Notes: generated by a model from the letters alone, not told the origin. 32,000 nt of DNA from Candidatus Electrothrix sp. GW3-4 (GCF_037902255.1 NZ_CP147990.1:3120001-3152000); one strand, 5' to 3'; counted from the stretch's first letter, positions 6,032 through 31,048 are shown. Numbers and translations: made by a program.

Positions 6032-6042
6032 GAAATATTTTA

Positions 6043-6237
6043 TTATCCCATTCTCTTTTGATTCTCATCGATTAACTCCTCAAGAAGGAGTTTGGCAAGA
6101 AATTGATTATTTGACGAAGTTGAAGCCGTCCTGCTGCCTAAATTCACCGAAGACACAGTAAGAGTTTTACCTACAACAGTAGCTTCCCCAGTGAATTCTT
6201 TTTCGTTTTTTATTACCTTCACCTCAAATGTACGCAT
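6043..6237 (-). CDS. small hypothetical protein (64 aa), probably co-transcribed with the DUF4145-like gene
   Basis: I prefer the ATG at 6237 because AGAGGAAG lies about 8 nt upstream. The track ORF extends to 6288. The stop is 11 nt before the next gene's start. Confidence 0.4.
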   Translation of the reverse strand: MRTFEVKVIKNEKEFTGEATVVGKTLTVSSVNLGSRTASTSSNNQFLAKLLLEELIDENQKRMG

Positions 6238-6474
6238 GATTAAACTTCCTCTATTCAAATAATAATATTTTCTCTCAAAAAACATCAATTTTGTAAGTCA
6301 AAAAAAGTAAACAAAACATCGTTGGCGAAAGAACAAAAAGTAATCTTTCAGATATCACACCCCAGAATCAACCCCCGCACCATGCGGGTTGTAAATTCGG
6401 CTTGCAGCGTCAAATCCCCGACAACAATCATGCAAAACATCATTGCCGGAGATAATTCACCTTACTTTCCTTCC

Positions 6475-6930: not shown

Positions 6931-7441
6931 GACGTCCTCCTTGCGTTAATTTTGAAGAATAATTGCAAGCTATTGCGATACTTCCAATCTGTCAAGAATA
7001 AAAACTCTATCATCTCAGTGAGTTTGCAGGAAGAAAGAAAAGAGGAGAAAGTCTATTTTTTGTATAAAAAGATCAAAAAAATATATCTTTTTATCATTTC
7101 AATGTATCTGGATATATATTTTTTCTTTGTTTATAACAAAAAAATATACCTTCAGTAGCTCGCAACAGCAGGTATAAACCCCCTCAATCGCCTGCCAGTG
7201 TATAGAAATCCTGTTGTGGCACAGATAAAAATCTTTTTTTTGCGCTTACAAGCAGCCACCAATGAATCCCCCAGCCAATATTCCATCAGCAAAAAATAAC
7301 GTTCCTCGTCGCCATCCTCCTGTTCCATCACAACTGTTGTACTTCCAGAAGAATATGAATATACTGAGATCGAAATCATAACTGAGCACCGCCTGTTCCA
7401 TCTCATTACCATGCTCAAACAAGAGAAAAGATGAGAACATT

Positions 7442-8311: not shown

Positions 8312-8313
8312 AA

Positions 8314-8337
8314 AAGAGGATGTCCTCCCATCCTCTT
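8314..8337. terminator. hairpin between convergent genes (possible bidirectional terminator)
   Basis: 9-bp stem aagaggatg/catcctctt with loop tcctcc. An A-run lies on the left and the T-run on the right is weak. Confidence 0.5.
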
Positions 8338-8393
8338 TCCAGAGAGCTTGCCGGAATACACCGACAGCTCAAAACATCAGTCAGATAAAATTC

Positions 8394-10352: not shown

Positions 10353-10862
10353 CTTGTGCTCCTCATTCCTGAAATTTGTCTTTCTATCATGGTGATCTTT
10401 TCATCTCGAGCAGTACTACTCATTGAGATTTTTGATAATATTAAATGCAATGTACTGCTGTATTTTCCATCTCTACTGTGATATTCAAGTACTCAGCAGG
10501 GGAAATTGAATATTTACTTCAACAATAATATTGTTTAACCATTGAGGATTAGAAAGTAAACAGGAAAGAGCAGGTCGTTAACACCCCCTTTTTTTTCTTC
10601 CACCTGATCTTCCCTCAGCAGAGCTGCGGGGATGACCGGCCCGGAACAACAGCTCTCTTGCATCGATAAATTCGACTGATAGCCAAGAAAAAAACAGAAC
10701 TCCCTTCCGTTTCTTGTTGTTTTTTTAAGAACTTCCTTGAGGGATGCTCTGAAATTCGATAAGTTGGTCCCGTCAGCTGGAAAGGTCGAGCTCATAGAGT
10801 TGCTGTTAGGGAGCCTCGGAAAGGGTCCCCAAGACCATAATCAAATGCATCAGGAGTGAAGT

Positions 10863-16726: not shown

Positions 16727-18283
16727 TTACTTCTTTTCCTTAGCTGCTCCAGGGACATGGGACCAGCCCGTTGTCAGCTTATCAACAACATTCGGCGGAT
16801 TACTCGGCTCACCAGTTGACTTAACCGTTACATTCTGCTCGGTCATATCAACCACCGGGACAGCAGGAATTTCGGTCAGACCATACCACTCATTCAGGTC
16901 AACGCCATCAGGCAGGTTGGTCAGCAGTTTTTCAGCAACCTTCTGACTGGCCTGGCGAAAACGAAGCTTGGCATGAACCTCCAGCTCATGTCCTTTTCCC
17001 TGCGGATAGAGGATGGTATAGACGATATCCCGATACCCCTTGGGTGGGATAAGACCGTGTTTGGCATAGGACACCACCTTCCAGGGATCAATCTGGAAGA
17101 CCTCATGCATATCGGTTCCTTCGGTGTTAAAGACGTGGGTGTTCCCGTCCAGCTCGCCCTTCTCATCCAGATAACCGCTCTGTATCAGTACCTTACCGGT
17201 TTTCTTATCTGTAATCTTGACTTCAAGCCACATCTCACGAACAGCGGTCAGCGAGGTCGGCAGGTTATGGCCTGCACGGCGGTTATGGACCCGAACCCTG
17301 ATCTTATACAGATCACCCTCCTTATTATACATGGGATCAATCTCGATCTCCGCAGCAGCCTGAAGGCGCTGGACCGCCATCTCGTACTTCTGTTGCAGAT
17401 TAGCCGCCAGCTTCTCATCACCCTCTTTCTCGGCCTTGAGTTTACCCAGGAAGTACATCAGGAAGTTGGCCCCATTAAAGTAATGGTGATACTCGCTCCG
17501 CTTGGGCTTGATGAACTCATCCGCAGAACGTTTAAAGGTGTCGATATCCACCATATGGCAGTCCTGACATTGAATACCGTTCAGGGCGTATAGGCTCTTC
17601 TTCCACTCACCATAGGTGAACTCATAGGGGAAGTGCTTGTCGTAATGGTAGACATGATGACAGCCTGCGCAGAGTTCAGCCGTCAGGTGCTTCGGAGACT
17701 CCACACATTCATGAAAACCACCACCACAGCCCTCGTAGTTGGGGAAAGGACCGTATTTGGTTCGGGTCACCGAGCCATCGGCGTTTTCACGGCCTGGAGA
17801 AAGAACAAAGGAGCCATTTTCCGGCTCATGGGATGGGGTCTCCCAATGGGTCAGCCGTTTAATGGAGTGACAGACATCACAGGACACACCGGCCTTGGCC
17901 AGAGGACTGAGATTGTTGAAATCCAATTCTGCGGTTTCCCCCTTAACAAAGGCGGCTGGTGTATGACAGCCCTCACACTGTTTGGTGATCTCTTTTCCCA
18001 CTGCTTTAATAGCCAGGTTCAGCTCCCCCAGATAGACCGGATCCTGAAAGGCCATGGAGTGCATGGAGCCCTGCCATTCTTCGTACTGCTTGGGATGACA
18101 ACCAGCACAGGTGGAAATAGACGGCGCGACAAAGTCGGCCTTGGTCTTCTCCCATTGCAGGTTTGACGGCTTAAAAGAAAGCAATTCAGGCTGCTTGGCG
18201 CCTTCGGCTGCAAAGCCTGAGGTAGCCACTGTAAGCAACCCGGCTGCCAGCCCCATAGCCAACCCAATGTATTTGTGTCTCAT
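16727..18283 (-). CDS. periplasmic pentaheme c-type cytochrome with a heme-free C-terminal domain
   Basis: Signal peptide MRHKYIGLAMGLAAGLLTVATSGFAAEG. Five CXXCH motifs (CAGCH, CEGCH, CDVCH, CAGCH, CQDCH), all in the first ~250 aa. Confidence 0.8.
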   Translation of the reverse strand: MRHKYIGLAMGLAAGLLTVATSGFAAEGAKQPELLSFKPSNLQWEKTKADFVAPSISTCAGCHPKQYEEWQGSMHSMAFQDPVYLGELNLAIKAVGKEITKQCEGCHTPAAFVKGETAELDFNNLSPLAKAGVSCDVCHSIKRLTHWETPSHEPENGSFVLSPGRENADGSVTRTKYGPFPNYEGCGGGFHECVESPKHLTAELCAGCHHVYHYDKHFPYEFTYGEWKKSLYALNGIQCQDCHMVDIDTFKRSADEFIKPKRSEYHHYFNGANFLMYFLGKLKAEKEGDEKLAANLQQKYEMAVQRLQAAAEIEIDPMYNKEGDLYKIRVRVHNRRAGHNLPTSLTAVREMWLEVKITDKKTGKVLIQSGYLDEKGELDGNTHVFNTEGTDMHEVFQIDPWKVVSYAKHGLIPPKGYRDIVYTILYPQGKGHELEVHAKLRFRQASQKVAEKLLTNLPDGVDLNEWYGLTEIPAVPVVDMTEQNVTVKSTGEPSNPPNVVDKLTTGWSHVPGAAKEKK

Positions 18284-18649
18284 TCTTCCTCCTTTCTTTG
18301 TTCGTTAATTCTCTGTTCGTTCAGTTAAACATTCAGTTAAACAAGCACCCTTTGTTATTCATAACCATCTTTTGTTATTAAAAAGTATTATAGGTCAACG
18401 CAGAAAAAAGGTACAAGGACTTTTTTTATAAAAAATCTCTCCCATGCAAAAAAAAGCATACCAGCTCTTCGGAAGCAACGTTGGCGTAGAACGTTATTCC
18501 CTCCCCCTCTGTTTCCCGGCATCCCACAGGGCAGGATACATACTGTCTCGCCAACTAGGAGACAGCTGCCCCCTTTTTTCCCTCTATACAGGACGAACGG
18601 AGGGATGGACGTGCAGAGGTACGCAGACGTGCTGCGGGGACCTGCCTAC

Positions 18650-19699
18650 TCAGAGACCATTGGTGAGCTGGCCCAAAAAGCCGTCTCTCTTGTCCTCCAC
18701 GCCCTGTTCCAACTCCATGACCCGTTCGGCGTAATCATCGTATTCTGTCACCAGCACTGAAACGATAAAGTTGCCTGGTCCCAACTTGCCATTGCCGAGC
18801 TGGGAACGGGGGATGGCCGGAAAGAGCTGGGGAGAGCTGGTCATGGCATAGCGCTGTCCATCAAGGGGGATACTGCCGAAGTTAAACTTTCGGGTGGCGA
18901 TAACTTCACTATGCCCCTGTTGCTGCCTGTCAAGCCAGACCGCAGTGATGGATACCTCTGCGGTTACATCGACCTTTTTCGGACGGGCCGGGGATAAGGA
19001 CCGGGTCTGCATCGTCTGCATGACGGTCCAGGGGGCAAGGAGATCAAAGCCAAAGGGCCGGCTGATATCAAAAGCAGCGACCTTGGCCTTGGCATGGGTC
19101 ATGGCAATGTTCTTGGGCCGGATCTGAAAGGCAGTGCCGTCAATGGTCTCTTCGATGGTAAAGACCAGGCTCATCACCTCACCGAGCTCGGGCAGGGAAC
19201 GGGTAAGGTGCAGCTCCTGGAGGTGAATACTCCGTTGGCCATCAGTGGGACAGGCATAGACCTGATCAGCAGAGGAGCGGTACTGCTTGGTAAAGTACGG
19301 AGAATCAGCGGGGTCGTTGGCAGAAAGACATTTACCATAGAAATGATCACCCACGGCCAGGGCCGAATAGGAGGCAGTATAGCGTTCTGCTTCCTTTTTC
19401 AGGAACTCCTGGACCTGTTCGGTTGCCATTTGCAGGACCGAGGCCGCTGTAGCAGAGGCGGGAGAGAACAAGGCCGTTTCTCGGGTTCCGTCTTCCTTCT
19501 TTGCTGTTGCCTGGCATGATTTCTTGATGTCGCACTCGGCCCATTCTTTGACATAGCCCAGAGAGAGCTGCACGGTTTCGCCCTCCCGTTGGTCCGAGTC
19601 AGGATAGGGAGGAAAGACCAGGTTGGAGACATTTCTATTCACAGAGGAACAGCCGGTCAGGGTTAGGCATAACAGGGATAGCACGAGCAGTCTTTTCAT
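18650..19699 (-). CDS. hypothetical lipoprotein
   Basis: Lipobox LTLTGC follows a signal peptide. I prefer the ATG at 19699 (AAGGAGA upstream) to the one at 19720. Confidence 0.6.
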   Translation of the reverse strand: MKRLLVLSLLCLTLTGCSSVNRNVSNLVFPPYPDSDQREGETVQLSLGYVKEWAECDIKKSCQATAKKEDGTRETALFSPASATAASVLQMATEQVQEFLKKEAERYTASYSALAVGDHFYGKCLSANDPADSPYFTKQYRSSADQVYACPTDGQRSIHLQELHLTRSLPELGEVMSLVFTIEETIDGTAFQIRPKNIAMTHAKAKVAAFDISRPFGFDLLAPWTVMQTMQTRSLSPARPKKVDVTAEVSITAVWLDRQQQGHSEVIATRKFNFGSIPLDGQRYAMTSSPQLFPAIPRSQLGNGKLGPGNFIVSVLVTEYDDYAERVMELEQGVEDKRDGFLGQLTNGL

Positions 19700-19848
19700 C
19701 TTCTCTCCTTTTCTCTTCATTGATCAAGGCCCTGGGCAGAGAACCGAGGACAGGTATCTCGCAGGTCAAGCAAACAGGGGAGAACGGAACAGCACAGTAA
19801 AGGAGCAGGCGTATTCGAGAGACATTGCCGGAAAGGATAGAATGATAT

Positions 19849-20085
19849 CTATATATGATATCGATTATAGATCTCCTTCCGTACCGGGCAGCCACAGAGG
19901 ACATCCTCTCCCAGGGTGTACTGGAAGTTACAGGTGCTGTTATCCCGGCATCGTATATAGAGGACGGACTCAAGAAGGCATTTTTCTGCCTGACAGATGT
20001 CCTGTTTGTTCTTATCAAGGCAGGAGAATCCTTTCTTGCATTTTGCGGCGCGTTCTCTTGCCTCCTCACTGACGTCAATATCCAT
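19849..20085 (-). CDS. small Cys-rich hypothetical protein (78 aa, 9 Cys)
   Basis: ORF between the lipoprotein and CZB genes on the same strand. The RBS is weak and I recognised no family. Confidence 0.4.
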   Translation of the reverse strand: MDIDVSEEARERAAKCKKGFSCLDKNKQDICQAEKCLLESVLYIRCRDNSTCNFQYTLGEDVLCGCPVRKEIYNRYHI

Positions 20086-20148
20086 TACTTCATCCGTTCT
20101 TTGTACTTACCCCTCGTCAGGGCCCACCGACTTTGCCTCCCCCTGGGG

Positions 20149-20187
20149 CAAAGAAAAACCGGGTTATGCACGAGGCACCTACCCGGT
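20149..20187 (-). terminator. rho-independent terminator downstream of CZB gene 2
   Basis: Stem accgggt/acccggt (20158-20164 and 20181-20187), followed on the minus strand by TTTTCTTT. It lies 42 nt after the stop at 20229. Confidence 0.65.
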
Positions 20188-20228
20188 CAGGAACGTATCT
20201 TCTCATCAAGAGCAACAAGGCAAGGCGC

Positions 20229-20594
20229 TCAGATACTGTCTTTTGCTGCCTGAGACTCGACCTGTTCCATCACCCTGATGAATTCATCACATTGTGCCTT
20301 AAACTTGCTCAGGGCCTCTTTACCTGCCGGACTTTTTCGCTCGGCCTCCGGCATCTGAACCAAGCGCTTGATGGCTGCATGGAAGTCTTTATGGAGACTT
20401 TCCACCTGTCCCATCTCAGAGTAGGCAGCGAACTCCTCCAGGCCGGACTTATAGAGCCATTGCCCGAAATCGCAGGACATATGGTCGGGAACATCGGCCA
20501 CAGTCAGGTTTTCCAGGCCATAGAAGAAATCAGCCAACTTTGATTTCCACCGTAAATGAGCAACCGTTGCTACCTGCAAATGTGCTACATCCAT
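20229..20594 (-). CDS. stand-alone chemoreceptor zinc-binding (CZB) domain protein, paralog 2
   Basis: CZB signature present: HLRW ... CDFGQW ... HKDFH. It is 121 aa and aligns without gaps to paralog 1, with about 62% identity by manual count. Confidence 0.8.
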   Translation of the reverse strand: MDVAHLQVATVAHLRWKSKLADFFYGLENLTVADVPDHMSCDFGQWLYKSGLEEFAAYSEMGQVESLHKDFHAAIKRLVQMPEAERKSPAGKEALSKFKAQCDEFIRVMEQVESQAAKDSI

Positions 20595-20760
20595 GCTTCA
20601 CCTCTTCTAACTCTGGGGGTTGAACTCCTGGGTTGAACTCCTGTCAGTTATTCTTCGGAGTTACGATTTTATGTCGGTCAACTTTTCTTGTCAATAATTT
20701 CTTATGGTACTGCCTTAAAAAAAGGAGTGCTGTTCCCTTCCCTTGGGAGGGGAAGGCCGG

Positions 20761-21138
20761 TTAGGCAAGAATCAAGAGCTCCTCTCTCTCCCCGATAAAA
20801 TTATAAAAGGCACATTCTCTGCATTCTTGCTCCTTATGTAAGCAAAGGCAGGACATATGGCCTTTATAGAGAGTCTGACGCAGGACCCAACAGCAGCGTC
20901 CCCCATTTTTGCCATGATGAATGCCATCAGTCTCGCCTTGAACACTTACCGGACAAAGGCCGTGGCGTAATACATTTTCCCCTCCTGGTTCCCTGCCGCA
21001 TCCATTGAATTCCCAACAATTTTCCTGCCTGTCATTCTCTATACTACCGATCATACTCCTCTCGATCACACTACTCTCAATCACACTCCTATTGACCATA
21101 CTCTCTATCATACTTTTGTTCCGTCTATGCTTTAGCAA
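20761..21138 (-). CDS. small Cys-rich protein with paired CW motifs (two-CW-domain-like); start codon uncertain
   Basis: NCWEFNGCGREPGG and GGRCCW motifs plus a CRECAF end. The N-terminal 30 codons are degenerate DNA tandem repeats (SMIE/SVIE). The ORF start is TTG and several internal ATGs are possible starts. Confidence 0.5.
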   Translation of the reverse strand: MLKHRRNKSMIESMVNRSVIESSVIERSMIGSIENDRQENCWEFNGCGREPGGENVLRHGLCPVSVQGETDGIHHGKNGGRCCWVLRQTLYKGHMSCLCLHKEQECRECAFYNFIGEREELLILA

Positions 21139-21263
21139 TTTACCCTTTAATCGCTTAGCATTATAGCATCTTTTGCACTACCCGCACAATAAGGTAACCG
21201 ACTCATTTTGTCAGGAAAATAACCCGACCATCCGGGCAAGAGACCGTAGAGAAACAAGGGAAA

Positions 21264-21286
21264 GGGCTTGGGGCTTGGGGCTTGGG
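21264..21286 (+). repeat. G-quadruplex-type motif GGGCTTGGGGCTTGGGGCTTGGG
   Basis: Four G3-4 runs separated by CTT, read directly. The motif sits in a G-rich stretch at 21250-21340. Confidence 0.6.
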
Positions 21287-21371
21287 AAGGAGAGAGGAGG
21301 CAGGTAAGGGTGGTTGTTGTATGGAGGGATTGTTAGGGGCAGAAGGCGGAGCAGATCCAAGGGACTGCCTC

Positions 21372-21407
21372 GAACTCATTCCCTCTTATAGAGGGTGGTG
21401 GCAAAAC
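21372..21407 (-). repeat. degenerate terminal CRISPR repeat
   Basis: gaactcattccctcttatagagggtggtggcaaaac aligns to the consensus repeat through the CCCTCTT..ATAG.GGT.GGTG...AAC core. It lies one spacer length (33 nt) from repeat 1. Confidence 0.6.
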
Positions 21408-21410
21408 CAA

Positions 21411-21441
21411 TATAGAGGCGACCGGTCGGTCGCCCCTACAG
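21411..21441. repeat. 31-nt palindromic element, copy A (tatagaggcgaccggtcggtcgcccctacag)
   Basis: 28/31 identical to 24077-24107 by manual alignment. It fills the slot between the degenerate repeat and repeat 1. Confidence 0.75.
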
Positions 21442-22183
21442 TCTTAATACCCTCTTCATAGGGTAGGTGTTCCAACGGCGATTTCCGTTGCTTTAATCTC
21501 AACCCTAAAGGAGTCTTAATACCCTCTTCATAGGGTAGGTGTTCCAACCGCAAAAAAAACAGCTATTTTGGACAAAGTTAATTAGTCTTAATACCCTCTT
21601 CATAGGGTAGGTGTTCCAACCAGGGCTTTGTGGGTTTGCTAGCACAACAACCTGTCTTAATACCCTCTTCATAGGGTAGGTGTTCCAACCTATCTTCCAC
21701 ATCCCGGGGGGGATAACCCCAAGCGTCTTAATACCCTCTTCATAGGGTAGGTGTTCCAACGAAATCCAAGATGTAACAGTAAACACGAATGCAAAGTCTT
21801 AATACCCTCTTCATAGGGTAGGTGTTCCAACGTAAATTAGGAGTGGATGTAACTCTTATCATGGGTGTCTTAATACCCTCTTCATAGGGTAGGTGTTCCA
21901 ACCGGATGAAAATCCGTATCAGTTGGCGACAGCGTCTTAATACCCTCTTCATAGGGTAGGTGTTCCAACTTTCAGGATGTCAGGAAACGGAAACGCAGTA
22001 TTATGTCTTAATACCCTCTTCATAGGGTAGGTGTTCCAACATTTTGGGATTTTTCCCAAGCATGATTAGCAACGAGAGTCTTAATACCCTCTTCATAGGG
22101 TAGGTGTTCCAACAACAGTATCTGCGTCCGGTCAGATCTGTTCTTTTGTCTTAATACCCTCTTCATAGGGTAGGTGTTCCAAC
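21441..22183 (-). CRISPR. CRISPR array with 11 identical 36-nt repeats and 10 spacers
   Basis: The plus-strand repeat is gtcttaataccctcttcatagggtaggtgttccaac, starting at 21441, 21513, 21585, 21654, 21725, 21796, 21867, 21934, 22005, 22078 and 22148. Spacer lengths are 36, 36, 33, 35, 35, 35, 31, 35, 37 and 34 nt, and all spacers are unique. I infer minus-strand transcription because the degenerate repeat is at the low-coordinate end and the reverse complement, GTTGGAAC...ATTAAGAC, has the canonical GTT...AAGAC form. Confidence 0.95.
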
Positions 22184-22216
22184 AGCGGCCCTGCATCAAA
22201 CAATACTGAATTCAGC

Positions 22217-22245
22217 AGATTATGCAAGTAAAATTTTACCATCAA
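22217..22245 (-). promoter_or_regulatory. candidate leader promoter for the CRISPR array
   Basis: The minus strand reads TTGATG-N17-TAATCT. The -10 element ends 34 nt upstream of the leader-proximal repeat. The call rests on pattern match only. Confidence 0.35.
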
Positions 22246-22590
22246 AACGGGTTTTGAAAGTTGTGGATTTTGAACCGCCATTTTCAACCCTCCAATAAAG
22301 CGATATGCGACATTGTGACCAATCAGTCATAATCGGTACAGCATCCTGTACATCCTCTTTCCTGCCCAAGAAAATTCCCTTTCCCTTCAAGGCAGTAGCA
22401 CCAGAACGGGAATTATGATGAAAAATGACACAAGGAAAAATCAACGCAAAATAATTTGATGTCCGGCCCTGTTTCCCTTCTTTCCCCTCTTTCTTTTTCT
22501 CCTCTATATTATACCTGCTCCTCTGGCCTGGGCAAAGAAAAAGGGGCAGGTCCCTTGATTTCCCCAACCAGGCAGGAAAAACAGCCTGAA

Positions 22591-22760
22591 CCTAAGGACT
22601 CCTCTCAGTTGTCCCTAGGGAGTTCTTCATCTCGAACCTAGGGAGTTCTTCATCTCGAACCTAGGGAGTTTCCTCTCTCGAACCTAGGGAGTTTCCTCTC
22701 TCGAACCTAGGGAGTTCTTTATCTCGAACCTAGGGAGTTTCCTCACTCGCCCCTAGGGAC
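22591..22760. repeat. 23-nt tandem repeat block (6 good units, a degenerate leading unit and a partial trailing unit)
   Basis: Units start at 22614, 22637, 22660, 22683, 22706 and 22729, with consensus cctagggagtt[cttcat/tcctct]ctcgaa. Two variants occur in the order A A B B A' B'. Each unit contains the CCTAGG palindrome. Confidence 0.9.
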
Positions 22761-22870
22761 AAGTCCCTCCTCCTCCTTGTCCACCAAAAAAACACGGTCC
22801 GCTCCACGATTTTTTCTCTTCTCGCACAAGATTATTCCGCAGCAACAGGACGTTACCCCACATATTCCCC

Positions 22871-22899
22871 TTGACAAGCCCTGCCCTCCTCCGTAGGAT
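22871..22899 (+). promoter_or_regulatory. candidate sigma70-type promoter of the HU-like gene
   Basis: TTGACA-N17-TAGGAT, read directly. The -10 element ends 57 nt upstream of the ATG at 22957. Confidence 0.45.
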
Positions 22900-22956
22900 A
22901 CCTCCCATGCGGTTTGCCCGGTGTATCAAGGAGTTCAATTCAACAGGAGAAGAACC

Positions 22957-24027
22957 ATGTCCACTGTTCAATGTCGCGTCGAAAGAAATACCCTGACCAC
23001 CCCTCCTTCCTATAGCCTCCGCTTCATCCCCCACAATATCTATGGTTATGAAGAGCTGGCCGATGAGATCGTGCGGGACAATCCCTCCCTGAACAGGGAT
23101 CAGGTCCTGGTGATGCTGCGGGCCCGGGATCAGACCGTGCAACGACTGCTCATCAACGGCAACCAGGTCACCCTGGAAGACGCCTTCAGCTACCGCCTCT
23201 CCTTTAAGGCCCGCCTCAACGAACCCAATGCGCCGCTGCCCTCAGCCGAGGAATGTCTGCGGGTCAAGATCTCGGCCTCCCGGCCCTTTATCAAGGAGGT
23301 GCGGCAAAAGGCCCGGCTGGAACGCCTGCCTGCCGAGGAAAAGCTGCCCCTGATCACCTCCACCGAAGACACGGAGCTGGGCCTGAACGATGTCCTGTAT
23401 GACCAGGGAGTACTCCGGCTGATGGGCAATGATCTCCTCTTTGACCGCAATGAAGCCGACTGTGGCTGCACCCTGACCGGGACCCGCAGTGGCGCTGCAG
23501 TCCAGCACCGCTTTGCGGCCATCTCCAACACAGAGGTCCTGATCGTGCCGACTATCCCGGCCCAGGAGGCGGCCTGGAACAACGAGTACCGGCTTGCCCT
23601 GGCCACCCGCTTTACCGAACACGGGACCCTGCGCACCGGCACCTATCGAGGCAGGCTCCGCACCCCCCTGGAGGTGAGCGGCTTTGACCATCCCAATATG
23701 GAGGTGGGGATCCTGACCGGCAAGGCCACGACGCCCCACGTCCTTATCACCGGCGGCAGCCTGCATGGGGAGGGGATGATCCGGGTCCAGGCCGTGTTGG
23801 ACGCCCGGGATGGGCATATCCTCTGTAACCTGTTGGATATGGAGGAAGAGGGGGCAGCGGGCGATCCGGTGGCAATGCGGGCCAATGGGACCTATACCCT
23901 GGCCGGTTTTAGCGGGGCCCTGGTGAGCAGCCTCAACCTGCGGGTGGATGACTACGAGGCCCTGCATGCCTTGATCCGCAACGACTATGCTGGCCAATTG
24001 GTGGATGTGTTGGCGGTGAGGCCCTAG
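22957..24027 (+). CDS. putative DNA-binding protein with an HU-like N-terminal domain and DUF4469-like Ig-fold region(s)
   Basis: I prefer the ATG at 22957 (AGGAGA 7 nt upstream). The N-terminus VERNTLT...Y.LRF....Y.YEELADEI...NPSLNRDQVLVML...Q.LLINGNQVTLEDAFSYRLSF matches the pattern of HU-fold fusion proteins, and the following ITSTED...GVLRLMGNDLLFD resembles DUF4469. Both calls are from memory only. Confidence 0.45.
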   Translation: MSTVQCRVERNTLTTPPSYSLRFIPHNIYGYEELADEIVRDNPSLNRDQVLVMLRARDQTVQRLLINGNQVTLEDAFSYRLSFKARLNEPNAPLPSAEECLRVKISASRPFIKEVRQKARLERLPAEEKLPLITSTEDTELGLNDVLYDQGVLRLMGNDLLFDRNEADCGCTLTGTRSGAAVQHRFAAISNTEVLIVPTIPAQEAAWNNEYRLALATRFTEHGTLRTGTYRGRLRTPLEVSGFDHPNMEVGILTGKATTPHVLITGGSLHGEGMIRVQAVLDARDGHILCNLLDMEEEGAAGDPVAMRANGTYTLAGFSGALVSSLNLRVDDYEALHALIRNDYAGQLVDVLAVRP

Positions 24028-24073
24028 GGGCAGACCTGCGTGGCTGCCCGGTTGGACTGAAGAGGGGCGAACC

Positions 24074-24109
24074 CACTGTAGGGGCGACCGGCCGGTCGCC
24101 CCTACAGTG
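24074..24109. repeat. perfect 36-nt palindrome (cactgtaggggcgaccgg/ccggtcgcccctacagtg), copy B of the palindromic element; probable bidirectional terminator
   Basis: The 18-nt arms are exact reverse complements. It lies between the convergent stops at 24027 and 24121. Confidence 0.8.
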
Positions 24110-24120
24110 TCCCTGCCCCC

Positions 24121-27100
24121 CTACAGGGGCAGGATATGCACTTCTTCCCGGGAGGGATGGATCCCCTTGAGAAAGAGACCATTACGGCCGTCAATGGAGA
24201 TCGGGTCACCAAAGCGGATCCGCACCCCATTGGTCACGGCATACTCCCGGCTTTCAAAGACCTGGAGGTCCCGGCACCCCACCACACAGGTCTTTTCCAG
24301 GCGGGTGGCCACCACCGAGGCATGGGAGGTCTGACCGCCCCGGGCAGTAAGGAGCCCTTCTGCCATGGAGATCTCCCGGATATCCTCAGGCACGGTATCC
24401 TGCCGGATCAGGATCAGAGGGACATCGGGCTGCTCCTCTCTCAGCTGCTGGATGTTCTCTTCTGTGAACACGGCCAGACCAGAAAGGGCAGAACCGCTCA
24501 CCCCGATCCCCTTGCCCAGGATACTCCCCTGCAGCTCCTCTGATTCGCGAAAGACGTGGAAACGTTCCTTCTTTTTCACCGTGATCATATCCCGGGTCTG
24601 GAGGATGTAGAGATCCTCTGCCGCAGGCCCTTCAAAGGTGAACTCGATCTCCTGGGGATTCCACTCCTTGGTATAGACCAGGTCCCGGGCAATGCTGAGC
24701 AGACGGCTATAGATGGCCGGGAACTTCCGTTCCAGGGTCTGTTCCACCGGTCTCCCGTCCAGTTCAGCCTGCTCCACAGAGACCGGGTAGCTGTTGACCA
24801 GGCCGGAAACGATATCCTCCCCCTGGTCCTCAGAGGCATAATCCCCCCACAGGGCCACCCGTCGCACCTTGCGATAAGGGTGGGCAGTAAACAGGACCCC
24901 ACTGCCCGCCTCTGCACTCCTATTGCCATAGACCATGGACTGGACAATCACGGCCGTGCCCCAATCATCGGACACATCCATCAGGTTGCGATACTGGGTT
25001 GCCTTGGCCGTATTCCAGGAGGAGAGCACCATTTCCACGGCCCCGATCAACTGCAACCAGGGGTCCTCAGGAGCGCTGCGCCCGCGCCTGCGCAAGGCAG
25101 CCTGGTAATCCAAGGCCAACTCCCGCATCTGTGGTGCGGAAAACTGCCGTTTCAGACGCACGCCATGCTGTTCTTTATGGCTGTTCATCAGCCCCTGGAA
25201 CTCCTCCCGTTCCATACCACCGGCCATGGCCCAGGACTGGAGAAAACGACGATAATTATCCCAGAGGAAATACTCTTTCTCCGGGTGATGCGCGACCAAC
25301 TCTTCCACCAGCTCCTCATTGAGCCCCACGTTATGGATGGTGGTCATCATCCCAGGCATGGACATGGCTGACCCGGAACGGACAGAGAGCAACAGGGGGT
25401 CTCTGGGTGAACCAAAACTCCGGTTCGTCTGCTCCTCCAGACTGGTAATAGCCCCCCGTACCCGTTGCATAAACTCATCACGGGCCCGTTTAAAGCCCTG
25501 CACGGCCCGCCAGCAGCGAAAGATCTCGGTGGTGATGATAAAGGCTGGCGGCACCGGTTTACCGTCCCCGGCCAAGATCATCAGGTTAAAGCCCTTATTG
25601 CCCAGATGGATCAGATTATGGGTGCGGAGATTTTCATTATACAAGGAGGAGATGGTCTTTTCCGGATTATAGGTCATGAGCAGGTCAATGGTCCGGGCAT
25701 CCAGGATATCCTTTTGCGCCTCCAGGGTATGGATGATACGGGTAATAAAGTTATCCAGATGTTGCAGACCAAAGGTACTGGCGATAAGGTCCCGGAAAAA
25801 GGACTCGGACAGGCGATGGACCGTGGCCGCCATATCCTCATCCTCACAGAGCGAACGGTACTTGGTCAGGAGATTCTTCTGCCCTGTCTGGGGAATAATT
25901 ATAGAGAGATTATTCTGATGAACATTGGTGTAATAGGCATAGATCACATCCTTGACCCCTTCAGAGAGGCCGCGAACAATGTCCAGATGCTGGGTATAGG
26001 TAAAGCGCTTCATGGTGATGGACGAACTAAGCAGACTGGTATAGGTATCCAGCCGCCGACTGGTGATCCCATCCACCTTCAGGGCCCGGAGAAGGAGGAG
26101 CAGGCAACGGGAGATGCGGATAAAGGTGGCCTGGGTGATAAAGCCCAGGTTGATGGAGCGGGTCAGGCGTTCTATATAGATATTGGCCAGGTTCTCCAGA
26201 CGGAAGCTCAGGCCCAGGGCATCAAATTTCCGTTCCGAATAGCGCCCATAGACCGAGGGGATATCCACGGCAATATGCCTTTTATAATAGATCTCCTCCC
26301 TGGGTTCAAACCGTTCCTCAGAGAGAATAATCTCCTTTAACCGCTCCAACTGGGTGAGCAGGGCATCAAGACAGGCAAAGATATCCCCCTTCTCCAGCAC
26401 ATCCAACAGGCCCTCCATCTCAGGAAAACCGCCTTGGGCCGCATCATGCAGTTGATGCCGCAGCTCTTGCATACTCAGGCTGTACTTATGCTGGAGGAGT
26501 TTGAACATCCTCACCAAGAGGGTAAAACGCCTGCGCTCCCCGAGCGAGATATCCTCCTGCTGGCTGAGCCAGGCATGACGTTCCTTCTTGGGCCAATCCA
26601 GGACCTCATCCATGGAGGAGATCTCCCGCTCCTGCTGGATCCGTTTGGTCAGGACATGCAATTCATCAATAAACGGGCCTTCGGTGACCACCTGGGCAAG
26701 GATCTCATCAGGGAGAAAGGGGCGGAGATGCCTCTTCTCCAGGGTCAGCCAGAAGACAAAGATCCCCTTGATAAAGCCGACAATCAGGTTGGAGGACTCC
26801 ACATGAGATTGCTTGCGCAGGAAGTGGATCAGCACATCATGGCGCTTATGCATCTCGTCCAGTTCAGTCGAGACATCCCGCAACTCCCCTTCTGCCCCGA
26901 TTTCGTTAAAGAAGACCGGCATCAACTTGGTGAACTGCTTGGCCAGATTATAGATAGGGAAGATGGGATGATTGAGCAGATCGGTGATGTCGCGTTGAAA
27001 GAGATCCGTATCCTTGACGCAGGTCCCGGAAAGCTTGATATTGATGATCAGGGCCGAGAACAGGGTGGAACACCATTTGGGTTCCTGCATAATCAGACTC

Positions 27101-28374
27101 AACCAGCCCCGGATATTGGCGAGATGGGCCGGGTTGGTGATGGGCTGCCAATCCTCGTCCACCCCCATGACATTGGCGTACTGAAAGCCAAAGCGAACCG
27201 TCTCAAAGAGAAAGGCCTCCACCAGACGCGAGTTATTGCGGCGAAAGACCTCGCCCCCAATCACCTGAATACATTGCAGGGAGGTATGGGGATATTTGCG
27301 CACATTGGCCTTAAGGAGGTGGAAGGTGGTGACAAAGAACTGTTCTATCTCCTCAAAGGTCTGCTTGCGAATGAGCTGGATCAGCGAGCGGTTGATCTCA
27401 CGCAGGCTTTCCTCATGGATCAGATAGAGGCCCGAGGTGTCCATGATCCGAAAGAGAAAGAAGAGCTTGCGGTTCTCGGCAAACGAGGCCTCCTGTTCAT
27501 CGTCGGTGTCTGGGGTTAACTGCTTGGGAATCTCCCGATAGAACCGGACAATATCGATATGGGCGGGCAGCTCCAGAAGCTCGCTCAGGGCCTGATAGGC
27601 ATCTGCCTCAATATCGATGATATCAAGGGCTGCCAGATGCTCTTGAAAACGGTCATGGGAGATGGCCGTGAGCAGCGATCCTGCCTGCCATCCGCTGCAA
27701 AACGAACCACATTGGGTCTCAAACCAGGGCTGAGGGTTTTCTTCACTGAGCCAATACGTATAATTCAGCCGGAGGATCTTTTTCATCAGCCGGGCCAGGG
27801 GGCCGCAGGAGAAGGAGATACCCTCATGGTTGCGCCCGAGTTTCATCAGATGCAAGGCCATCTTCTTCATGGGATGATGTCCCTGGACCATATACATCAT
27901 CACGCTTTCATCAATCTCATCCAGCCGAACCAATCGTTCAAAGAAGCTGTCCAGCTGTTCCTGATAGAGCTCAAATGAATCGATGTGCAACGAGGCGATG
28001 AGCTTATCAGCATAGGCCAACATAGCCTCCATGGTCATGGAGACCACCTTGCCGTTTTTCTTCGACTCTGTCAGGGCATCAAGAAAAACCCCTGCAAACA
28101 GAGAAAAACAGGCAGGCCCCAGTTCATGCCTTCGATATTGATTGAAATTTTTAAGGACAAAGGGGCGCAGTTCCAGGATAATCATCTGCCAGTTCCGATA
28201 GGGATGGCTGATCTCGTAGAGCAGGTGTTCCAGCTTGGTTGCCACCCCCTGATAGCGGGCTACAACCTCCTGGAGGACCCTGAAGCGTTCCGGGATCTCC
28301 ACAACACTGGCGGTTTCCTCTTTATTGGCCTCCCAGGCCTTGGATGTAAACACTGGAGATTGTTGATCAGTCAT
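24121..28374 (-). CDS. 1417-aa protein: uncharacterised ~900-aa N-terminal region fused to a PPDK/PEP-synthase-type ATP-grasp and phosphohistidine swivel domain, with no PEP/pyruvate TIM barrel
   Basis: The C-terminal ~510 aa (about 24121-25630) carries LGNKGFNLMILAG, SVRSGSAMSMPGMMTTIHNVGLN and TARGGQTSHASVVATRLEKTCVVG, with the catalytic His codon at 24324-24322. The protein ends about 55 aa after the His domain. GAAGAGG lies upstream of the ATG. Confidence 0.8.
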   Translation of the reverse strand: MTDQQSPVFTSKAWEANKEETASVVEIPERFRVLQEVVARYQGVATKLEHLLYEISHPYRNWQMIILELRPFVLKNFNQYRRHELGPACFSLFAGVFLDALTESKKNGKVVSMTMEAMLAYADKLIASLHIDSFELYQEQLDSFFERLVRLDEIDESVMMYMVQGHHPMKKMALHLMKLGRNHEGISFSCGPLARLMKKILRLNYTYWLSEENPQPWFETQCGSFCSGWQAGSLLTAISHDRFQEHLAALDIIDIEADAYQALSELLELPAHIDIVRFYREIPKQLTPDTDDEQEASFAENRKLFFLFRIMDTSGLYLIHEESLREINRSLIQLIRKQTFEEIEQFFVTTFHLLKANVRKYPHTSLQCIQVIGGEVFRRNNSRLVEAFLFETVRFGFQYANVMGVDEDWQPITNPAHLANIRGWLSLIMQEPKWCSTLFSALIINIKLSGTCVKDTDLFQRDITDLLNHPIFPIYNLAKQFTKLMPVFFNEIGAEGELRDVSTELDEMHKRHDVLIHFLRKQSHVESSNLIVGFIKGIFVFWLTLEKRHLRPFLPDEILAQVVTEGPFIDELHVLTKRIQQEREISSMDEVLDWPKKERHAWLSQQEDISLGERRRFTLLVRMFKLLQHKYSLSMQELRHQLHDAAQGGFPEMEGLLDVLEKGDIFACLDALLTQLERLKEIILSEERFEPREEIYYKRHIAVDIPSVYGRYSERKFDALGLSFRLENLANIYIERLTRSINLGFITQATFIRISRCLLLLLRALKVDGITSRRLDTYTSLLSSSITMKRFTYTQHLDIVRGLSEGVKDVIYAYYTNVHQNNLSIIIPQTGQKNLLTKYRSLCEDEDMAATVHRLSESFFRDLIASTFGLQHLDNFITRIIHTLEAQKDILDARTIDLLMTYNPEKTISSLYNENLRTHNLIHLGNKGFNLMILAGDGKPVPPAFIITTEIFRCWRAVQGFKRARDEFMQRVRGAITSLEEQTNRSFGSPRDPLLLSVRSGSAMSMPGMMTTIHNVGLNEELVEELVAHHPEKEYFLWDNYRRFLQSWAMAGGMEREEFQGLMNSHKEQHGVRLKRQFSAPQMRELALDYQAALRRRGRSAPEDPWLQLIGAVEMVLSSWNTAKATQYRNLMDVSDDWGTAVIVQSMVYGNRSAEAGSGVLFTAHPYRKVRRVALWGDYASEDQGEDIVSGLVNSYPVSVEQAELDGRPVEQTLERKFPAIYSRLLSIARDLVYTKEWNPQEIEFTFEGPAAEDLYILQTRDMITVKKKERFHVFRESEELQGSILGKGIGVSGSALSGLAVFTEENIQQLREEQPDVPLILIRQDTVPEDIREISMAEGLLTARGGQTSHASVVATRLEKTCVVGCRDLQVFESREYAVTNGVRIRFGDPISIDGRNGLFLKGIHPSREEVHILPL

Positions 28375-28428
28375 ACCGGGCCTCTTCGGTTTTTTGAAAA
28401 ATCGGTTAAAATTTCAGCAATAGTCTCT

Positions 28429-29040
28429 TTACAGAAGGTTTTGACGGCAGGCTTCCGTATAGACAAACGGTGATCTTCTTTTAAGAAAGTCGGTTGTACA
28501 AAAGCCTTCTATATATTCCTGATAATGCCGAGATCGCATTGCTCTGTTTCCGGCATCATCCAGACGAAGACGATCAATTGTTTCCTGTATCTGACGTGTT
28601 ATACTGAACGGCAAGCTCGGATTCGGATAGATCCGTCCGCTGACAAGCTCCAGAGAAAACCAGTTGTCTTTAATGTGAAACGGATCAAGAACATCATCAT
28701 ATCTCCCTTTACGACTGTTCATTATTGAGCAGGCCAGCCGATAATTGCTCCACTCGTGAGCAAGGCGGGCAGAAGTCCCGACTTTGACGGTAAAATGATC
28801 GGCAGACACGCCGCCAGTGACGCGCTCAATATAGACGGCAAGATAGGCACAACACCCCTTGTAACTGACATGCAGATCATCAAGGCAGTCGCGCCAGCAA
28901 GGTTTCAGTGTTATTCCTTCCGGCACAGGCTGATCTGGAGCAATGCCTTTTTTCTGTAGAAAAGCAAGTCCTTTCCGCCGTACCTTGGCATCAAAGTCAG
29001 CCGGTTCCGGTTGTTCAGTCACAGGAATCATCAAAGCCAC
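28429..29040 (-). CDS. ptuB: PtuB-like HNH-family endonuclease (TIGR02646-like), Septu-type partner
   Basis: The core DHFTVKV....LAHEWSNYRLACSIMNSRKG is typical of the TIGR02646/PtuB HNH-like family. The start overlaps the preceding ATPase gene by 10 nt. Confidence 0.65.
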   Translation of the reverse strand: MALMIPVTEQPEPADFDAKVRRKGLAFLQKKGIAPDQPVPEGITLKPCWRDCLDDLHVSYKGCCAYLAVYIERVTGGVSADHFTVKVGTSARLAHEWSNYRLACSIMNSRKGRYDDVLDPFHIKDNWFSLELVSGRIYPNPSLPFSITRQIQETIDRLRLDDAGNRAMRSRHYQEYIEGFCTTDFLKRRSPFVYTEACRQNLL

Positions 29041-30326
29041 CCTCTTTTCTCCGCCACAAAACGCCAGCGCATCCAGAAAGGGTCTGTGTCACCCAGGACA
29101 TTTCTCAACTCCTGGTCAAGCTGTTTGGCCTGAGCCGCATCAAAGGAGGTGTCACTCAGGGCAACCGCTGCTTTCCCAAGAACCTCTTCCGCTTCCGCTG
29201 ATCGGGCACTGGACAAATCAAACGCCTCACTGGTCAGCCAGCTTGAGGCGTCACCCCGCCGGATCAAAGGCCGCCTACTCAAGCTTACGCCGGGAATTCC
29301 GCCGTTGTCGCCTCCGAAAAGATCGAAGTCAAACCAAGCATCTTTATCGTGATCAAAAATCGGTTCCACCGAGGCCATAACAAGGGGCGAATGGGTGGAC
29401 GCGACAAGCTGCACCTTAGCATGTTCTGTCAGGGAGTGAACAACATCAAGCAGTGGCCTGATAATCCGGCGCTGCCATTTCGGATGAAGATGCGCTTCAA
29501 TCTCATCAATAAGAAAAACGGCCTGTGAAGTTGTTTCTTCGTCAAGAAGCCTGCTTGCCTTGACATGTTCTTCCCAGGTCCAGACAAGCAGATAGGCCAG
29601 CGCGAGAATTCGACGCATTCCCGCTGAAGCGTGCAGGACAGGAACAGATTGGCCGTACGGCATCTTGAGGGTCGGAATGTCCCGCGGGTCATCCAGGCTG
29701 ATCCGCACCAGCTCACCTGGAATGATTTTTTCCCCACTAGAAGGAGAGAGTTTTTCCAGCACTGCGCAAAGGCGCTTGAAGGCAGCACCGTTTTCTTTCT
29801 GCCAGCCGGACCAGTCCGCAATCAGCCCGTTACAGAGCAACCCCCGCTGATCATCCCGAAGACCATCCCAGACCTCTCTTGCATTAAATACATAGGCCGA
29901 AGGTCGCTCCTGAACATCGGAATTCCCTTTCCTGCGCCAATAATTACGGGCCGGATCCCAGACCGCGAAACTGCCGTCAACCTGGGCATAAAGAATCAGC
30001 CCCGGATTTGAAGGGCGACCCGCCTTACCTGCCCATGCCTGTGCTTTACGGTCAAATGTGCTGATATAACTGATAGGTTTTGATTTTGCGGTGAATGTAA
30101 ACTCAATAGATGCTTTCCCGGTTTCATGCGGCTTTGCCATCAGCCCTGCAGGAAGCCGGGGATTGACTTCTGCTGGCCATTTTTTAGTAAGCGACCACCA
30201 AATGATATCCAGCAGAAAACTTTTTCCCAGCCCATTGTCACCGGTCAGCAAGTTCAGCCGCTCGCCGAATTCCAGCTGCAAAGCAGGAGCCGGGCCTACA
30301 TTGTTCATGTTCAGTTGCTTAATCAT
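29031..30326 (-). CDS. ptuA: PtuA-like AAA/ABC-type ATPase, Septu-type
   Basis: Walker A LTGDNGLGKS near the N-terminus, Walker B/D-loop VFLIDEIEAHLHP, and an H-loop-like ASTHSP. It is paired with the HNH-like gene. Confidence 0.65.
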   Translation of the reverse strand: MIKQLNMNNVGPAPALQLEFGERLNLLTGDNGLGKSFLLDIIWWSLTKKWPAEVNPRLPAGLMAKPHETGKASIEFTFTAKSKPISYISTFDRKAQAWAGKAGRPSNPGLILYAQVDGSFAVWDPARNYWRRKGNSDVQERPSAYVFNAREVWDGLRDDQRGLLCNGLIADWSGWQKENGAAFKRLCAVLEKLSPSSGEKIIPGELVRISLDDPRDIPTLKMPYGQSVPVLHASAGMRRILALAYLLVWTWEEHVKASRLLDEETTSQAVFLIDEIEAHLHPKWQRRIIRPLLDVVHSLTEHAKVQLVASTHSPLVMASVEPIFDHDKDAWFDFDLFGGDNGGIPGVSLSRRPLIRRGDASSWLTSEAFDLSSARSAEAEEVLGKAAVALSDTSFDAAQAKQLDQELRNVLGDTDPFWMRWRFVAEKRGWL

Positions 30327-30451
30327 GGCACCAATCCTGTTTACTCTTCTTATTCAATCACATAGCCCCTCTTTCCTGTTTCAACACCGGGGACGGAAAA
30401 GGCACTACAGAAAAACTATATCAGAATCACCTGGATCATTTTTCACGGATT

Positions 30452-31048
30452 TCAGAGATTCAGTCCACGCAGGACCCCTCCCTCGGAAAACAGCTCCAGG
30501 ACAGTCAGGGAAGCGGGCTGGACATCGAAGAGCAGGTAGTTACGGGGAGAGATACCCAGGGCAAGACAAATCATGGTCCGGATGACACCACCGTGCGTCA
30601 TAACAGCAACGGTATTATGCTCTGATGCGCTGAACATTGCCAGCATGGCCTCAACCCGGGCAATAAAGGCTGAGACCGCTTCTCCTTCTGGAAAGACAAA
30701 GTCCAGGTATTGATTCCAGGCAGCGAGCTGCTCTTTATCCTGAGCAGCAATATCAGCAAAAGTTTGCAACTCCCAGCGTCCGAAGTTAATCTCCCGCAAA
30801 CGGTCCTCATAGAGAGGTTCTCCCACCGGGCAGCCCAGCTGACGCACATGTTCCAGGGTCTGCCGGGTCCGCAGCATGGGACTGCAATACCAGCATTCAC
30901 CCCCTTTCACGTCTGTTACGATATTACCTAAACGGGCAAGACCCTGGCCAGACAAAGGAACATCGCTGCTGCCAACAAGGCAACCCGAGGGGGCAGTGGT
31001 GGGTCCGTGACGGAGGAGAAGAAGCCGGGTCGGCATAGAGTCGGTCAT
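30452..31048 (-). CDS. histidine phosphatase family protein (CobC/GpmB-like)
   Basis: The N-terminal RLLLLRHGPT (RHG catalytic motif) and a later THGGVIR motif are present. Its length is typical of alpha-ribazole phosphatase-like enzymes. Confidence 0.7.
   Translation of the reverse strand: MTDSMPTRLLLLRHGPTTAPSGCLVGSSDVPLSGQGLARLGNIVTDVKGGECWYCSPMLRTRQTLEHVRQLGCPVGEPLYEDRLREINFGRWELQTFADIAAQDKEQLAAWNQYLDFVFPEGEAVSAFIARVEAMLAMFSASEHNTVAVMTHGGVIRTMICLALGISPRNYLLFDVQPASLTVLELFSEGGVLRGLNL

Follow-up and report, generated by a model that had tools for sequence, protein, structure and literature searches.

The 32,000-nucleotide (nt) stretch of DNA analysed here as a whole (the window) stems from the cable bacterium Candidatus Electrothrix sp. 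GW3-4 (GCF_037902255.1 NZ_CP147990.1:3120001-3152000). It contains a gene for a giant dikinase-like protein of 1417 amino acids (aa), which combines the ATP-binding and phospho-histidine domains of pyruvate phosphate dikinase (PPDK) with an N-terminal region of about 900 residues, and which lies directly downstream of genes of the Septu defence system. The architecture, the distribution and the gene neighbourhood of this protein point to the glyceraldehyde-3-phosphate dehydrogenase (GAPDH) step of central carbon metabolism, not to defence. The gene and its parts are the following:

24121-28374, minus strand: dikinase-like gene, 1417 aa, ATG start (open reading frame list and translation)
25630-28374, minus strand: N-terminal region, residues 1-915, mostly alpha-helical in the AlphaFold2 model, with no detectable relative outside the dikinase-like family
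26740-27189, minus strand: most conserved N-terminal block, residues ~396-545 (column identity over 81 sequences from at least four phyla)
26185-26305, minus strand: predicted beta-hairpin, residues ~690-730, with the invariant motif KRHIAxDIPSxYGxYxExKF (secondary structure and model confidence in both models)
24589-25620, minus strand: PPDK-type ATP-grasp nucleotide-binding domain, residues ~919-1262 (Pfam PPDK_N; residues 18-~340 of PDB 1kbl; partial TIGR01828 match at 923-1262)
24154-24528, minus strand: phospho-histidine swivel domain, residues ~1283-1407 (Pfam PEP-utilizers; PDB 2fm4 match at 1283-1404)

The C-terminal module is readily assigned. Pfam assigns residues 967-1209 to PPDK_N (E 2.3e-27) and residues 1320-1399 to the PEP-utilizers mobile domain (E 6e-17), and a phmmer search against all PDB sequences aligns residues 919-1407 with residues 15-510 of the Clostridium symbiosum PPDK (E 7e-75), a span that covers the nucleotide-binding domain in full, together with the linker and the phospho-histidine domain. 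PDB 2fm4, matched by the swivel domain, is the isolated PPDK His domain. This module is far closer to PPDK than to phosphoenolpyruvate (PEP) synthase (E ~1e-14). The ATP-grasp motifs LGNKG, SVRSG..MPGMM, QGEDIVSG, EIEFTFE and YILQTRD are all present and nearly invariant across the family, and the catalytic histidine is His1351, in the motif GGQTSHASVV. A first-pass annotation of this DNA, made by reading the sequence, had already recognised the open reading frame, the ATP-grasp and swivel histidine domains and this motif, which Pfam, the PDB search and the translation all confirm; its position for the histidine codon, 24324-24322, is exact, and the other details that were checked proved right as well. 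As judged from these alignments, the C-terminal 500 residues make up an entire phosphotransfer engine of the PPDK type.

The part of PPDK that binds PEP or pyruvate is missing, as the same annotation had stated. No Pfam match to the PEP-utilizers_C barrel is found in the 1417-aa protein, which ends 10 residues past the swivel domain, where the second linker and the TIM barrel start in PPDK; its stop corresponds to residue ~510 of the 873-874-aa PPDK. Full-length orthologues have a constant length of 1412-1425 aa and the same two Pfam domains, and all full-length homologues listed carry PPDK_N and PEP-utilizers only. We also considered whether the gene might be split, the barrel being encoded on its own further downstream, and rejected this: the DNA downstream consists of a strain-specific insert and then a cytochrome gene, and the common end point of all homologues speaks against the idea as well. 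Compared with PPDK (EC 2.7.9.1; Clostridium symbiosum, PDB 1kbl/1dik), the window protein therefore shares the ATP-grasp motifs, the GGxTSH catalytic histidine and the domain order, but lacks the PEP/pyruvate TIM barrel and has 915 extra N-terminal residues. In the same line, the partial match to the NCBIfam model TIGR01828 reaches 347 bits, the cut-off being 843. With its defining barrel domain tested and absent, the window protein is not a PPDK.

The N-terminal region, by contrast with the C-terminal one, has no counterpart among known families. Residues 1-915 match nothing in Pfam, NCBIfam or PADLOC, and Pfam run on 22 N-termini of the family returned scattered chance matches only, with no carbohydrate-binding module (CBM). 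A hidden Markov model profile of the N-terminus searched against all PDB sequences reached a best E of 0.025, to unrelated helical proteins. With Foldseek against the PDB, the whole N-terminal model gave nothing meaningful (best E 4.5e-3, TM-score at most 0.17); the matches of this model and of the core 385-915, to helical repeat, transporter and designed helical proteins, are weak (TM-score 0.07-0.17) and are taken as no match. The first description of a helical region of about 900 aa without a recognised family is thus borne out by Pfam, by the PDB profile search and by Foldseek alike.

This region is nevertheless predicted with confidence. From an alignment of 81 sequences of 26-90% identity, AlphaFold2 returned a model of residues 1-915 with a mean predicted local distance difference test score (pLDDT) of 85.2 and a predicted template-modelling score (pTM) of 0.76, consisting almost entirely of helix with few short strands; a second model, restricted to residues 385-915, reached pLDDT 87.4 and pTM 0.82. 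Column identity amounts to 70-76% in the 30-residue blocks of 421-540 and to 79% in 691-720, and drops to ~30% in 120-300. The conserved block carries the motifs DTDLFQRD (455-462), FNEIGAEGELRD (489-500) and HFLRKQSHVE (517-526). About 80 N-terminal positions are at least 97% conserved over the 81 sequences, and they are rich in D, E, R, K and H: D455, D457, E495, R499, D506, E507, R511, D513, H517, R520, K521, H524 and E526 in the block, and K698, R699, H700, E714, R725 and E727 in the area of the hairpin. In the model of residues 1-915 the strands of this hairpin lie at 692-713; its invariant columns are K698, R699, H700, P706, S707, G710, Y712 and E714, and its loop (699-706), with the KRH motif at the tip, is of low confidence in the AlphaFold2 models. 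Such a pattern of conservation resembles that of a catalytic or ligand-binding site more than that of a passive scaffold. Two variations on this domain are seen within the family. In a shorter member (P0212), some of the sequence before residue ~350 is missing while the core is kept, and a subfamily (P0159, P0163 and P0202) has an extra N-terminal hemerythrin (HHE) domain of ~130 aa, a fusion that suggests an input from O2, redox state or iron.

The family is large: a search with residues 1-915 as query retrieved 1528 proteins, of which the best 120 are 64-100% identical and mostly 1412-1425 aa long. The closest, at 90% identity, are from Candidatus Electrothrix aarhusensis and E. scaldis, followed by the Electronema orthologues (~75%) and by those of Desulfolithobacter, Desulfogranum and Desulfobulbus (65-74%). 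In a scan of one genome per species, 240 were found to encode a relative; nearly all of the 80 best carry the label of Desulfobulbales or their relatives. An exhaustive HMMER search of the representatives of 50% identity clusters with the same query found 583 clusters at E<=1e-3, 198 of them at E<=1e-30, many with full-length representatives of 1335-1430 aa and 26-49% identity. The named distant members belong to Bacteroidales, Ignavibacteria, Cloacimonetes, Thermodesulfobacteria (Thermodesulfatator, Thermosulfuriphilus), Syntrophobacteraceae and Desulfococcus, so that at least four phyla are spanned. Over the N-terminal region, full-length orthologues within Desulfobulbales are 60-90% identical to the window protein, against 26-50% for the more distant ones. 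In the sources, these proteins are labelled 'PEP/pyruvate-binding domain-containing protein', 'pyruvate phosphate dikinase', 'phosphoenolpyruvate synthase' or 'hypothetical'. No description of the family was found in the literature on phosphoglycerate dikinase, on cable-bacteria dikinases or on dikinase-GAPDH clusters; a dikinase family with an N-terminal domain unrelated to known ones and a conserved link to GAPDH was thus not found described.

Within Electrothrix, the nucleotide identity between the window and E. scaldis is 81% for the dikinase gene and 74-80% for the flanking conserved genes. As the gene is about as similar as its neighbours, this is what vertical descent predicts. An origin from an enterobacterial island was excluded, megablast of the gene against all complete Escherichia coli genomes having given no match. 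We consider it rather likely that the dikinase gene belongs to the chromosome, is inherited vertically and represents an uncharacterised, widespread family of cable bacteria and many other anaerobes, and that it is not a component of Septu.

The clearest functional hint comes from the gene neighbourhood outside Desulfobulbales. For this census, made by tblastn, 39 non-Desulfobulbales loci were used, namely seven loci from other lineages and the true family members of a metagenome scan. That scan relied on C-terminal patterns, and 48 of its 80 loci turned out to be ordinary PPDKs and were discarded; among the other 32, loci L090-L119 were used. In the Bacteroidales-type, Cloacimonetes and Ignavibacteria loci, a canonical gap gene of 333-338 aa stands upstream of the dikinase gene, overlapping it by 4 bp in L085 and L086, and a protein of 417-418 aa with both GAPDH Pfam domains is encoded 30-110 nt downstream. 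Thermodesulfatator atlanticus has the order gap(334), giant dikinase gene, long gap(421), pgk, tpiA, secG; in the Syntrophobacteraceae locus the long gap gene lies 1.1 kb downstream, and in a further lineage tpiA lies upstream of the dikinase gene while both gap genes follow it downstream. Overall, the long GAPDH paralogue, here called GAPl, adjoins the dikinase gene downstream in 29 of the 39 loci (29 of the 33 whose sequence extends 1 kb or more downstream), at a distance of 20-320 nt (1.1 kb in one); in 26 of these 29 the two genes share a strand. Canonical gap is found immediately upstream on the same strand in 11 of the 39, and pgk and/or tpi adjoin in four (L087, L089, L090 and L092). 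When the loci are grouped at 60% identity of the conserved core, GAPl is adjacent in 12 of 16 lineages. The layout met most often is canonical gap, dikinase gene and the long, divergent paralogue of gap, after which pgk and tpi come in some cases.

GAPl itself (e.g. L087:12314-13579, L086:12120-13376 and ~27 other loci) is a divergent protein of 405-425 aa that scores 325 bits against the type I GAPDH cut-off of 367 and has no close solved relative. It keeps Cys149 (SCTTT), His176 (TVHA), the phosphate-site residues (TTGAA and the equivalent of Arg231) and WYDNE, contains four insertions, and has Gly-Arg in place of the Asp of the NAD-binding 'IND' motif. From these residues, GAPl looks like an active phosphorylating GAPDH-like dehydrogenase, possibly one with a preference for NADP.

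A related arrangement exists in Desulfobulbales, where canonical gap is located upstream on the same strand in 47 of 82 loci and immediately upstream, at a median distance of ~215 nt, in 40 of the 69 with enough upstream sequence. There, gap is usually preceded by a glycogen-synthase-like gene (42 of 82 loci). The latter is unusually long (~550 aa, e.g. L024:1578-3242), scores 252 bits with TIGR02095, which is below the cut-off, and is often itself preceded by chorismate synthase and shikimate kinase genes.

Several other dikinase-related enzymes dispense with the barrel, and the family was compared with each of them. VadK (Rv1127c) of Mycobacterium tuberculosis is a truncated PPDK whose histidine is autophosphorylated with ATP/Mg2+ and which interacts with enzymes of a central metabolic pathway (bioRxiv 10.1101/2025.10.30.685616). 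Both proteins have the ATP-binding and His domains and no PEP/pyruvate domain, but VadK is ~490 aa long with no added domain, whereas the window protein has its 900-residue N-terminal domain and belongs to other phyla; besides, VadK is linked to the methylcitrate cycle and the window family to GAPDH. Proteins of the VadK type have ATP-binding and His domains only, ~490-530 aa, and a score above the cut-off of the model NF004531 (PRK05878); the window protein departs from them in architecture and length and scores 286 bits against a cut-off of 456. In rifampin phosphotransferase, ATP-grasp and swivel histidine phosphorylate a non-pyruvate acceptor on a third, family-specific domain (PMC4844700). 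The comparison drawn in the first-pass annotation with this type of enzyme is right as domain logic, but the relation in sequence is weak, with 33 bits against the 999-bit cut-off of the model NF041857. The acceptor domain stands between ATP-grasp and swivel in rifampin phosphotransferase and N-terminally in the window protein, and Foldseek against the PDB, which should include structures of this enzyme, gave no significant match. By score and by domain order, the window protein is thus not of the rifampin phosphotransferase or PEP-synthase-like type.

The plant glucan water dikinase and phosphoglucan water dikinase (GWD and PWD) are very large dikinases (~1400 aa) in which a long N-terminal region provides the site for a non-pyruvate substrate. 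In GWD, CBM45/CBM20 modules are present and the His domain comes before the nucleotide-binding domain; the window protein shows neither these modules nor the His-first order. The family is accordingly not a member of the VadK, rifampin phosphotransferase or glucan water dikinase groups.

In PPDK, ATP and inorganic phosphate (Pi) serve to phosphorylate the catalytic histidine, with release of AMP and pyrophosphate (PPi); the phosphoryl group is then brought by the swivel domain to a second site. By analogy, the ATP-grasp domain of the window protein would use ATP, probably together with Pi and yielding AMP and PPi, to phosphorylate His1351 on the swivel domain, and the 900-residue helical domain would take the place of the pyruvate/PEP barrel. 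The phosphoryl-accepting site would then be formed by the charged N-terminal core, that is residues ~396-545 and the 690-730 hairpin. The first half-reaction would probably proceed as in the PPDK superfamily, and the second as in those members that have their acceptor on a third domain. Because GAPDH is the only association conserved across phyla, the function is placed at the GAPDH step of glycolysis/gluconeogenesis, where the protein would act as an enzyme or as a regulator. An uncharacterised ATP-driven phospho-histidine dikinase at this step, whichever of the two it may be, is the reading that we hold to be probable.

As to the reaction, the specific mechanism that we favour, though tentatively, is the interconversion of 3-phosphoglycerate (3-PG) and 1,3-bisphosphoglycerate (1,3-BPG), linked to ATP/AMP and Pi/PPi, which would feed or drain GAPl and bypass phosphoglycerate kinase (PGK). 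Such an activity would explain the position of the gene between gap and pgk, the presence of a second GAPDH and the coexistence with PGK. Free energies of hydrolysis are about -49 kJ/mol for 1,3-BPG and about -46 kJ/mol for ATP to AMP and PPi, so that the proposed step would lie close to equilibrium (roughly -4 kJ/mol when run towards glycolysis, compared with about -19 for PGK), whereas PGK is ~19 kJ/mol uphill in the gluconeogenic direction. More doubtful is the fully specified form of this proposal, a 3-phosphoglycerate:phosphate (or water) dikinase whose N-terminal domain, of a novel fold, would make or consume 1,3-BPG via phospho-histidine and which would constitute with GAPl an AMP/PPi-linked bypass of PGK, as a new enzyme of central carbon metabolism in anaerobes.

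A number of observations weigh against placing an enzyme, or indeed the protein, at this step. The substrate is a guess from gene order, and the 900-residue helical domain is oversized for the binding of a triose phosphate. PGK coexists in the same operons (L087, L090 and L092), which means that the dikinase is not a simple PGK replacement. The subfamily with a hemerythrin sensor suits a regulator better than a pathway enzyme. With regard to the linkage itself, GAPl is found within 8 kb in none of the 82 Desulfobulbales loci, GAPDH adjacency is lost in Electrothrix, Electronema and their close relatives, which form the clade closest to the window, the 32-kb window contains no GAPDH gene, and synteny within one order partly reflects common descent.

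Some of these points lead to a regulatory dikinase similar to VadK, in which the phosphorylation state of the histidine, set by ATP/AMP and Pi/PPi, would be relayed via the N-terminal domain to a GAPDH paralogue or another target and would thereby switch glycolysis/gluconeogenesis. This possibility shares the GAPDH placement and differs in the acceptor only, and we rate it nearly as likely as the 3-PG/1,3-BPG enzyme, without either reaching an even chance. VadK provides a precedent, the hemerythrin fusions of P0159, P0163 and P0202 would supply a sensor, and PGK is present alongside; moreover, the large helical domain has weak, non-significant Foldseek matches to helical repeat proteins only, the regulatory genes ptsN, rapZ and EIIA-Man adjoin the dikinase gene in L087 and L088, and the invariant His700, on what is modelled as a flexible hairpin loop, could be a relay residue. 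Conversely, the tight coupling to gap (4-bp overlaps) and the place inside gap-pgk-tpi operons are as for pathway enzymes, and the dense invariant acidic and basic residues look like a site for a small molecule or Mg2+. In addition, rifampin phosphotransferase, a PPDK relative with a non-barrel acceptor domain, acts on a small molecule, and PigC/RedH and glucan water dikinase, which also have non-barrel acceptor domains, act on small molecules or polymers. The fallback of the first-pass annotation, an unrelated regulatory kinase, came closer than its defence idea, but the recurring partner is GAPDH and glycolysis. An improbable alternative is a bacterial analogue of glucan water dikinase, whose N-terminal domain would bind glycogen and whose swivel histidine would phosphorylate the polymer. 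It would fit the size, close to that of plant GWD, and the glycogen-synthase-like gene that precedes gap and the dikinase gene, in the same orientation, in the 42 Desulfobulbales loci mentioned above; yet residues 1-915 contain no carbohydrate-binding module or other Pfam match, ATP-grasp followed by His is the reverse of the GWD order, and the linkage to glgA hardly extends beyond Desulfobulbales, whereas that to GAPDH spans phyla.

The last alternative arises from the immediate vicinity of the gene in the window, which contains:

28375-30451, minus strand: strain-specific 2.08-kb insertion with ptuA and ptuB, a stand-alone Septu (PADLOC; segment absent in Electrothrix relatives)
28429-29040, minus strand: ptuB (PADLOC 1.1e-66)
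29031-30326, minus strand: ptuA (PADLOC 5.5e-180)
30452-31048, minus strand: His_Phos_1 gene, phosphoglycerate-mutase superfamily (Pfam 9.2e-39)

The ptuA and ptuB genes, which overlap by 10 nt, had been read as Septu and ptuB-like from the start, an assignment that PADLOC establishes, and the dikinase had been put forward as a possible third gene of the defence operon. As such, it would serve as a phosphotransfer effector or sensor. It is true that the dikinase gene follows ptuB on the same strand after 54 nt, and that the lack of a convincing terminator noted at first is borne out by a consensus scan, with no terminator-like site on the coding strand in this gap. A promoter and terminator scan of 23.9-31.3 kb gave chance-level counts, and none on the coding strand in this spacer. 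The gene is, besides, flanked in this strain by variable defence-type DNA, with ptuAB to one side of it and a CRISPR-like array to the other.

Comparison with sister genomes gives another account of this adjacency. In E. scaldis, a 198-aa His_Phos_1 protein is encoded 82 nt upstream of the orthologue and a multihaem cytochrome downstream, and the order His_Phos_1, dikinase, cytochrome recurs in other Electrothrix genomes, among them those of E. aarhusensis and E. marina, His_Phos_1 being 51-82 nt upstream of the orthologue in L001, L003, L004, L006 and L007. The window has kept both genes (His_Phos_1 at 30452-31048, cytochrome at 16727-18283), parted from the dikinase gene by two window-specific segments: 18436-24118, and 28375-30451, which is exactly ptuA and ptuB and replaces a spacer of ~75 nt. 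Since sister Electrothrix have His_Phos_1 and the cytochrome gene directly beside the dikinase gene, ptuAB is a strain-specific insertion, and the gene ancestrally upstream of the dikinase gene in Electrothrix is His_Phos_1. Around the insertion, nothing convincing was found in the way of target-site duplications or inverted repeats; the window contains no tRNA gene that could mark an integration site, and the segment 28375-30451 no reverse transcriptase or retron.

The wider survey goes against the defence idea as well. PtuA and PtuB are present in 0 of the 82 orthologous Desulfobulbales loci (tblastn), and no PtuAB-like genes were called at the seven loci from other lineages, the metagenome loci L090-L119 being outside this screen. 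The giant protein matches no PADLOC family at E<=0.01, its orthologues are single conserved genes of constant length across the order and beyond, and the literature describes Septu as a system of an ATPase, PtuA, and a nuclease, PtuB. The homologues are thus conserved on the chromosome in housekeeping contexts and show no association with defence genes, the very situation that the first-pass annotation had named as speaking against a defence role, and the reading as a third Septu gene has become very improbable. Because the native spacer has been replaced, read-through from ptuAB into the dikinase gene is plausible in this strain, where the two may well be co-transcribed; this counts against treating the gene as wholly separate from ptuAB here, although it would be incidental to the site of insertion.

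Two observations on this part of the window may be added. On the plus strand, at 28375-28390 and just upstream of the dikinase start codon, a GC-rich hairpin ACCGGGCCTCTTCGGT is followed by a T-run, and it overlaps the likely ribosome-binding site on the coding strand. His_Phos_1, on its side, is a conserved upstream neighbour in Electrothrix only (e.g. L001:9323-9919); its product scores 123 bits against the CobC cut-off of 163 and could be a phosphatase paired with the dikinase.

As a lead for defence systems the gene is thus a negative, and it is a caution for their discovery: adjacency to Septu on the same strand, without a terminator, arose from the insertion of ptuAB into a conserved spacer. 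It deserves attention as an unknown of central carbon metabolism and as a case of systematic mis-annotation. PPDK and PEP synthase labels are carried by proteins without a PEP/pyruvate domain, and metabolic reconstructions, those of cable bacteria included, are probably wrong at this step. With ~580 clusters at 50% identity, a confidently predicted domain without solved relative and a gap-pgk-tpi setting, an unknown this large is uncommon in triose-phosphate glycolysis/gluconeogenesis; the family points either to a novel energy-coupling reaction, used by anaerobes that are limited in energy, or to a novel regulation of GAPDH flux.

Finally, the window differs from its relatives in two further regions. 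The 5.7-kb segment 18436-24118 is absent in the Electrothrix relatives, which have ~40-200 nt between the cytochrome and dikinase genes. Inside it lies the CRISPR-like array (21441-22180), made of 11 copies of the 36-nt repeat GTCTTAATACCCTCTTCATAGGGTAGGTGTTCCAAC at a spacing of 67-73 nt, with no cas genes recognised in the window; just past it, at 22565-22760, ~8 copies of a 23-nt unit (GAACCTAGGGAGTT..TCTC) form a tandem array. The second region, ~2200-10850, is not aligned to E. scaldis, and its GC content falls to 0.34-0.35 at 4-6 kb. The open reading frames of the two regions are:

18650-19720, minus strand: 356-aa lipoprotein-like protein, no family match (within 18436-24118)
22921-24027, plus strand: 368-aa protein, GC 0.63, weak DUF4469 match (within 18436-24118)
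2687-3580: multihaem cytochrome (in region ~2200-10850)
5366-6031: DUF4145 protein (in region ~2200-10850)
7442-8311: PD-(D/E)XK transposase-like protein (in region ~2200-10850)
8394-10352: Na+/H+ exchanger-TrkA fusion (in region ~2200-10850)

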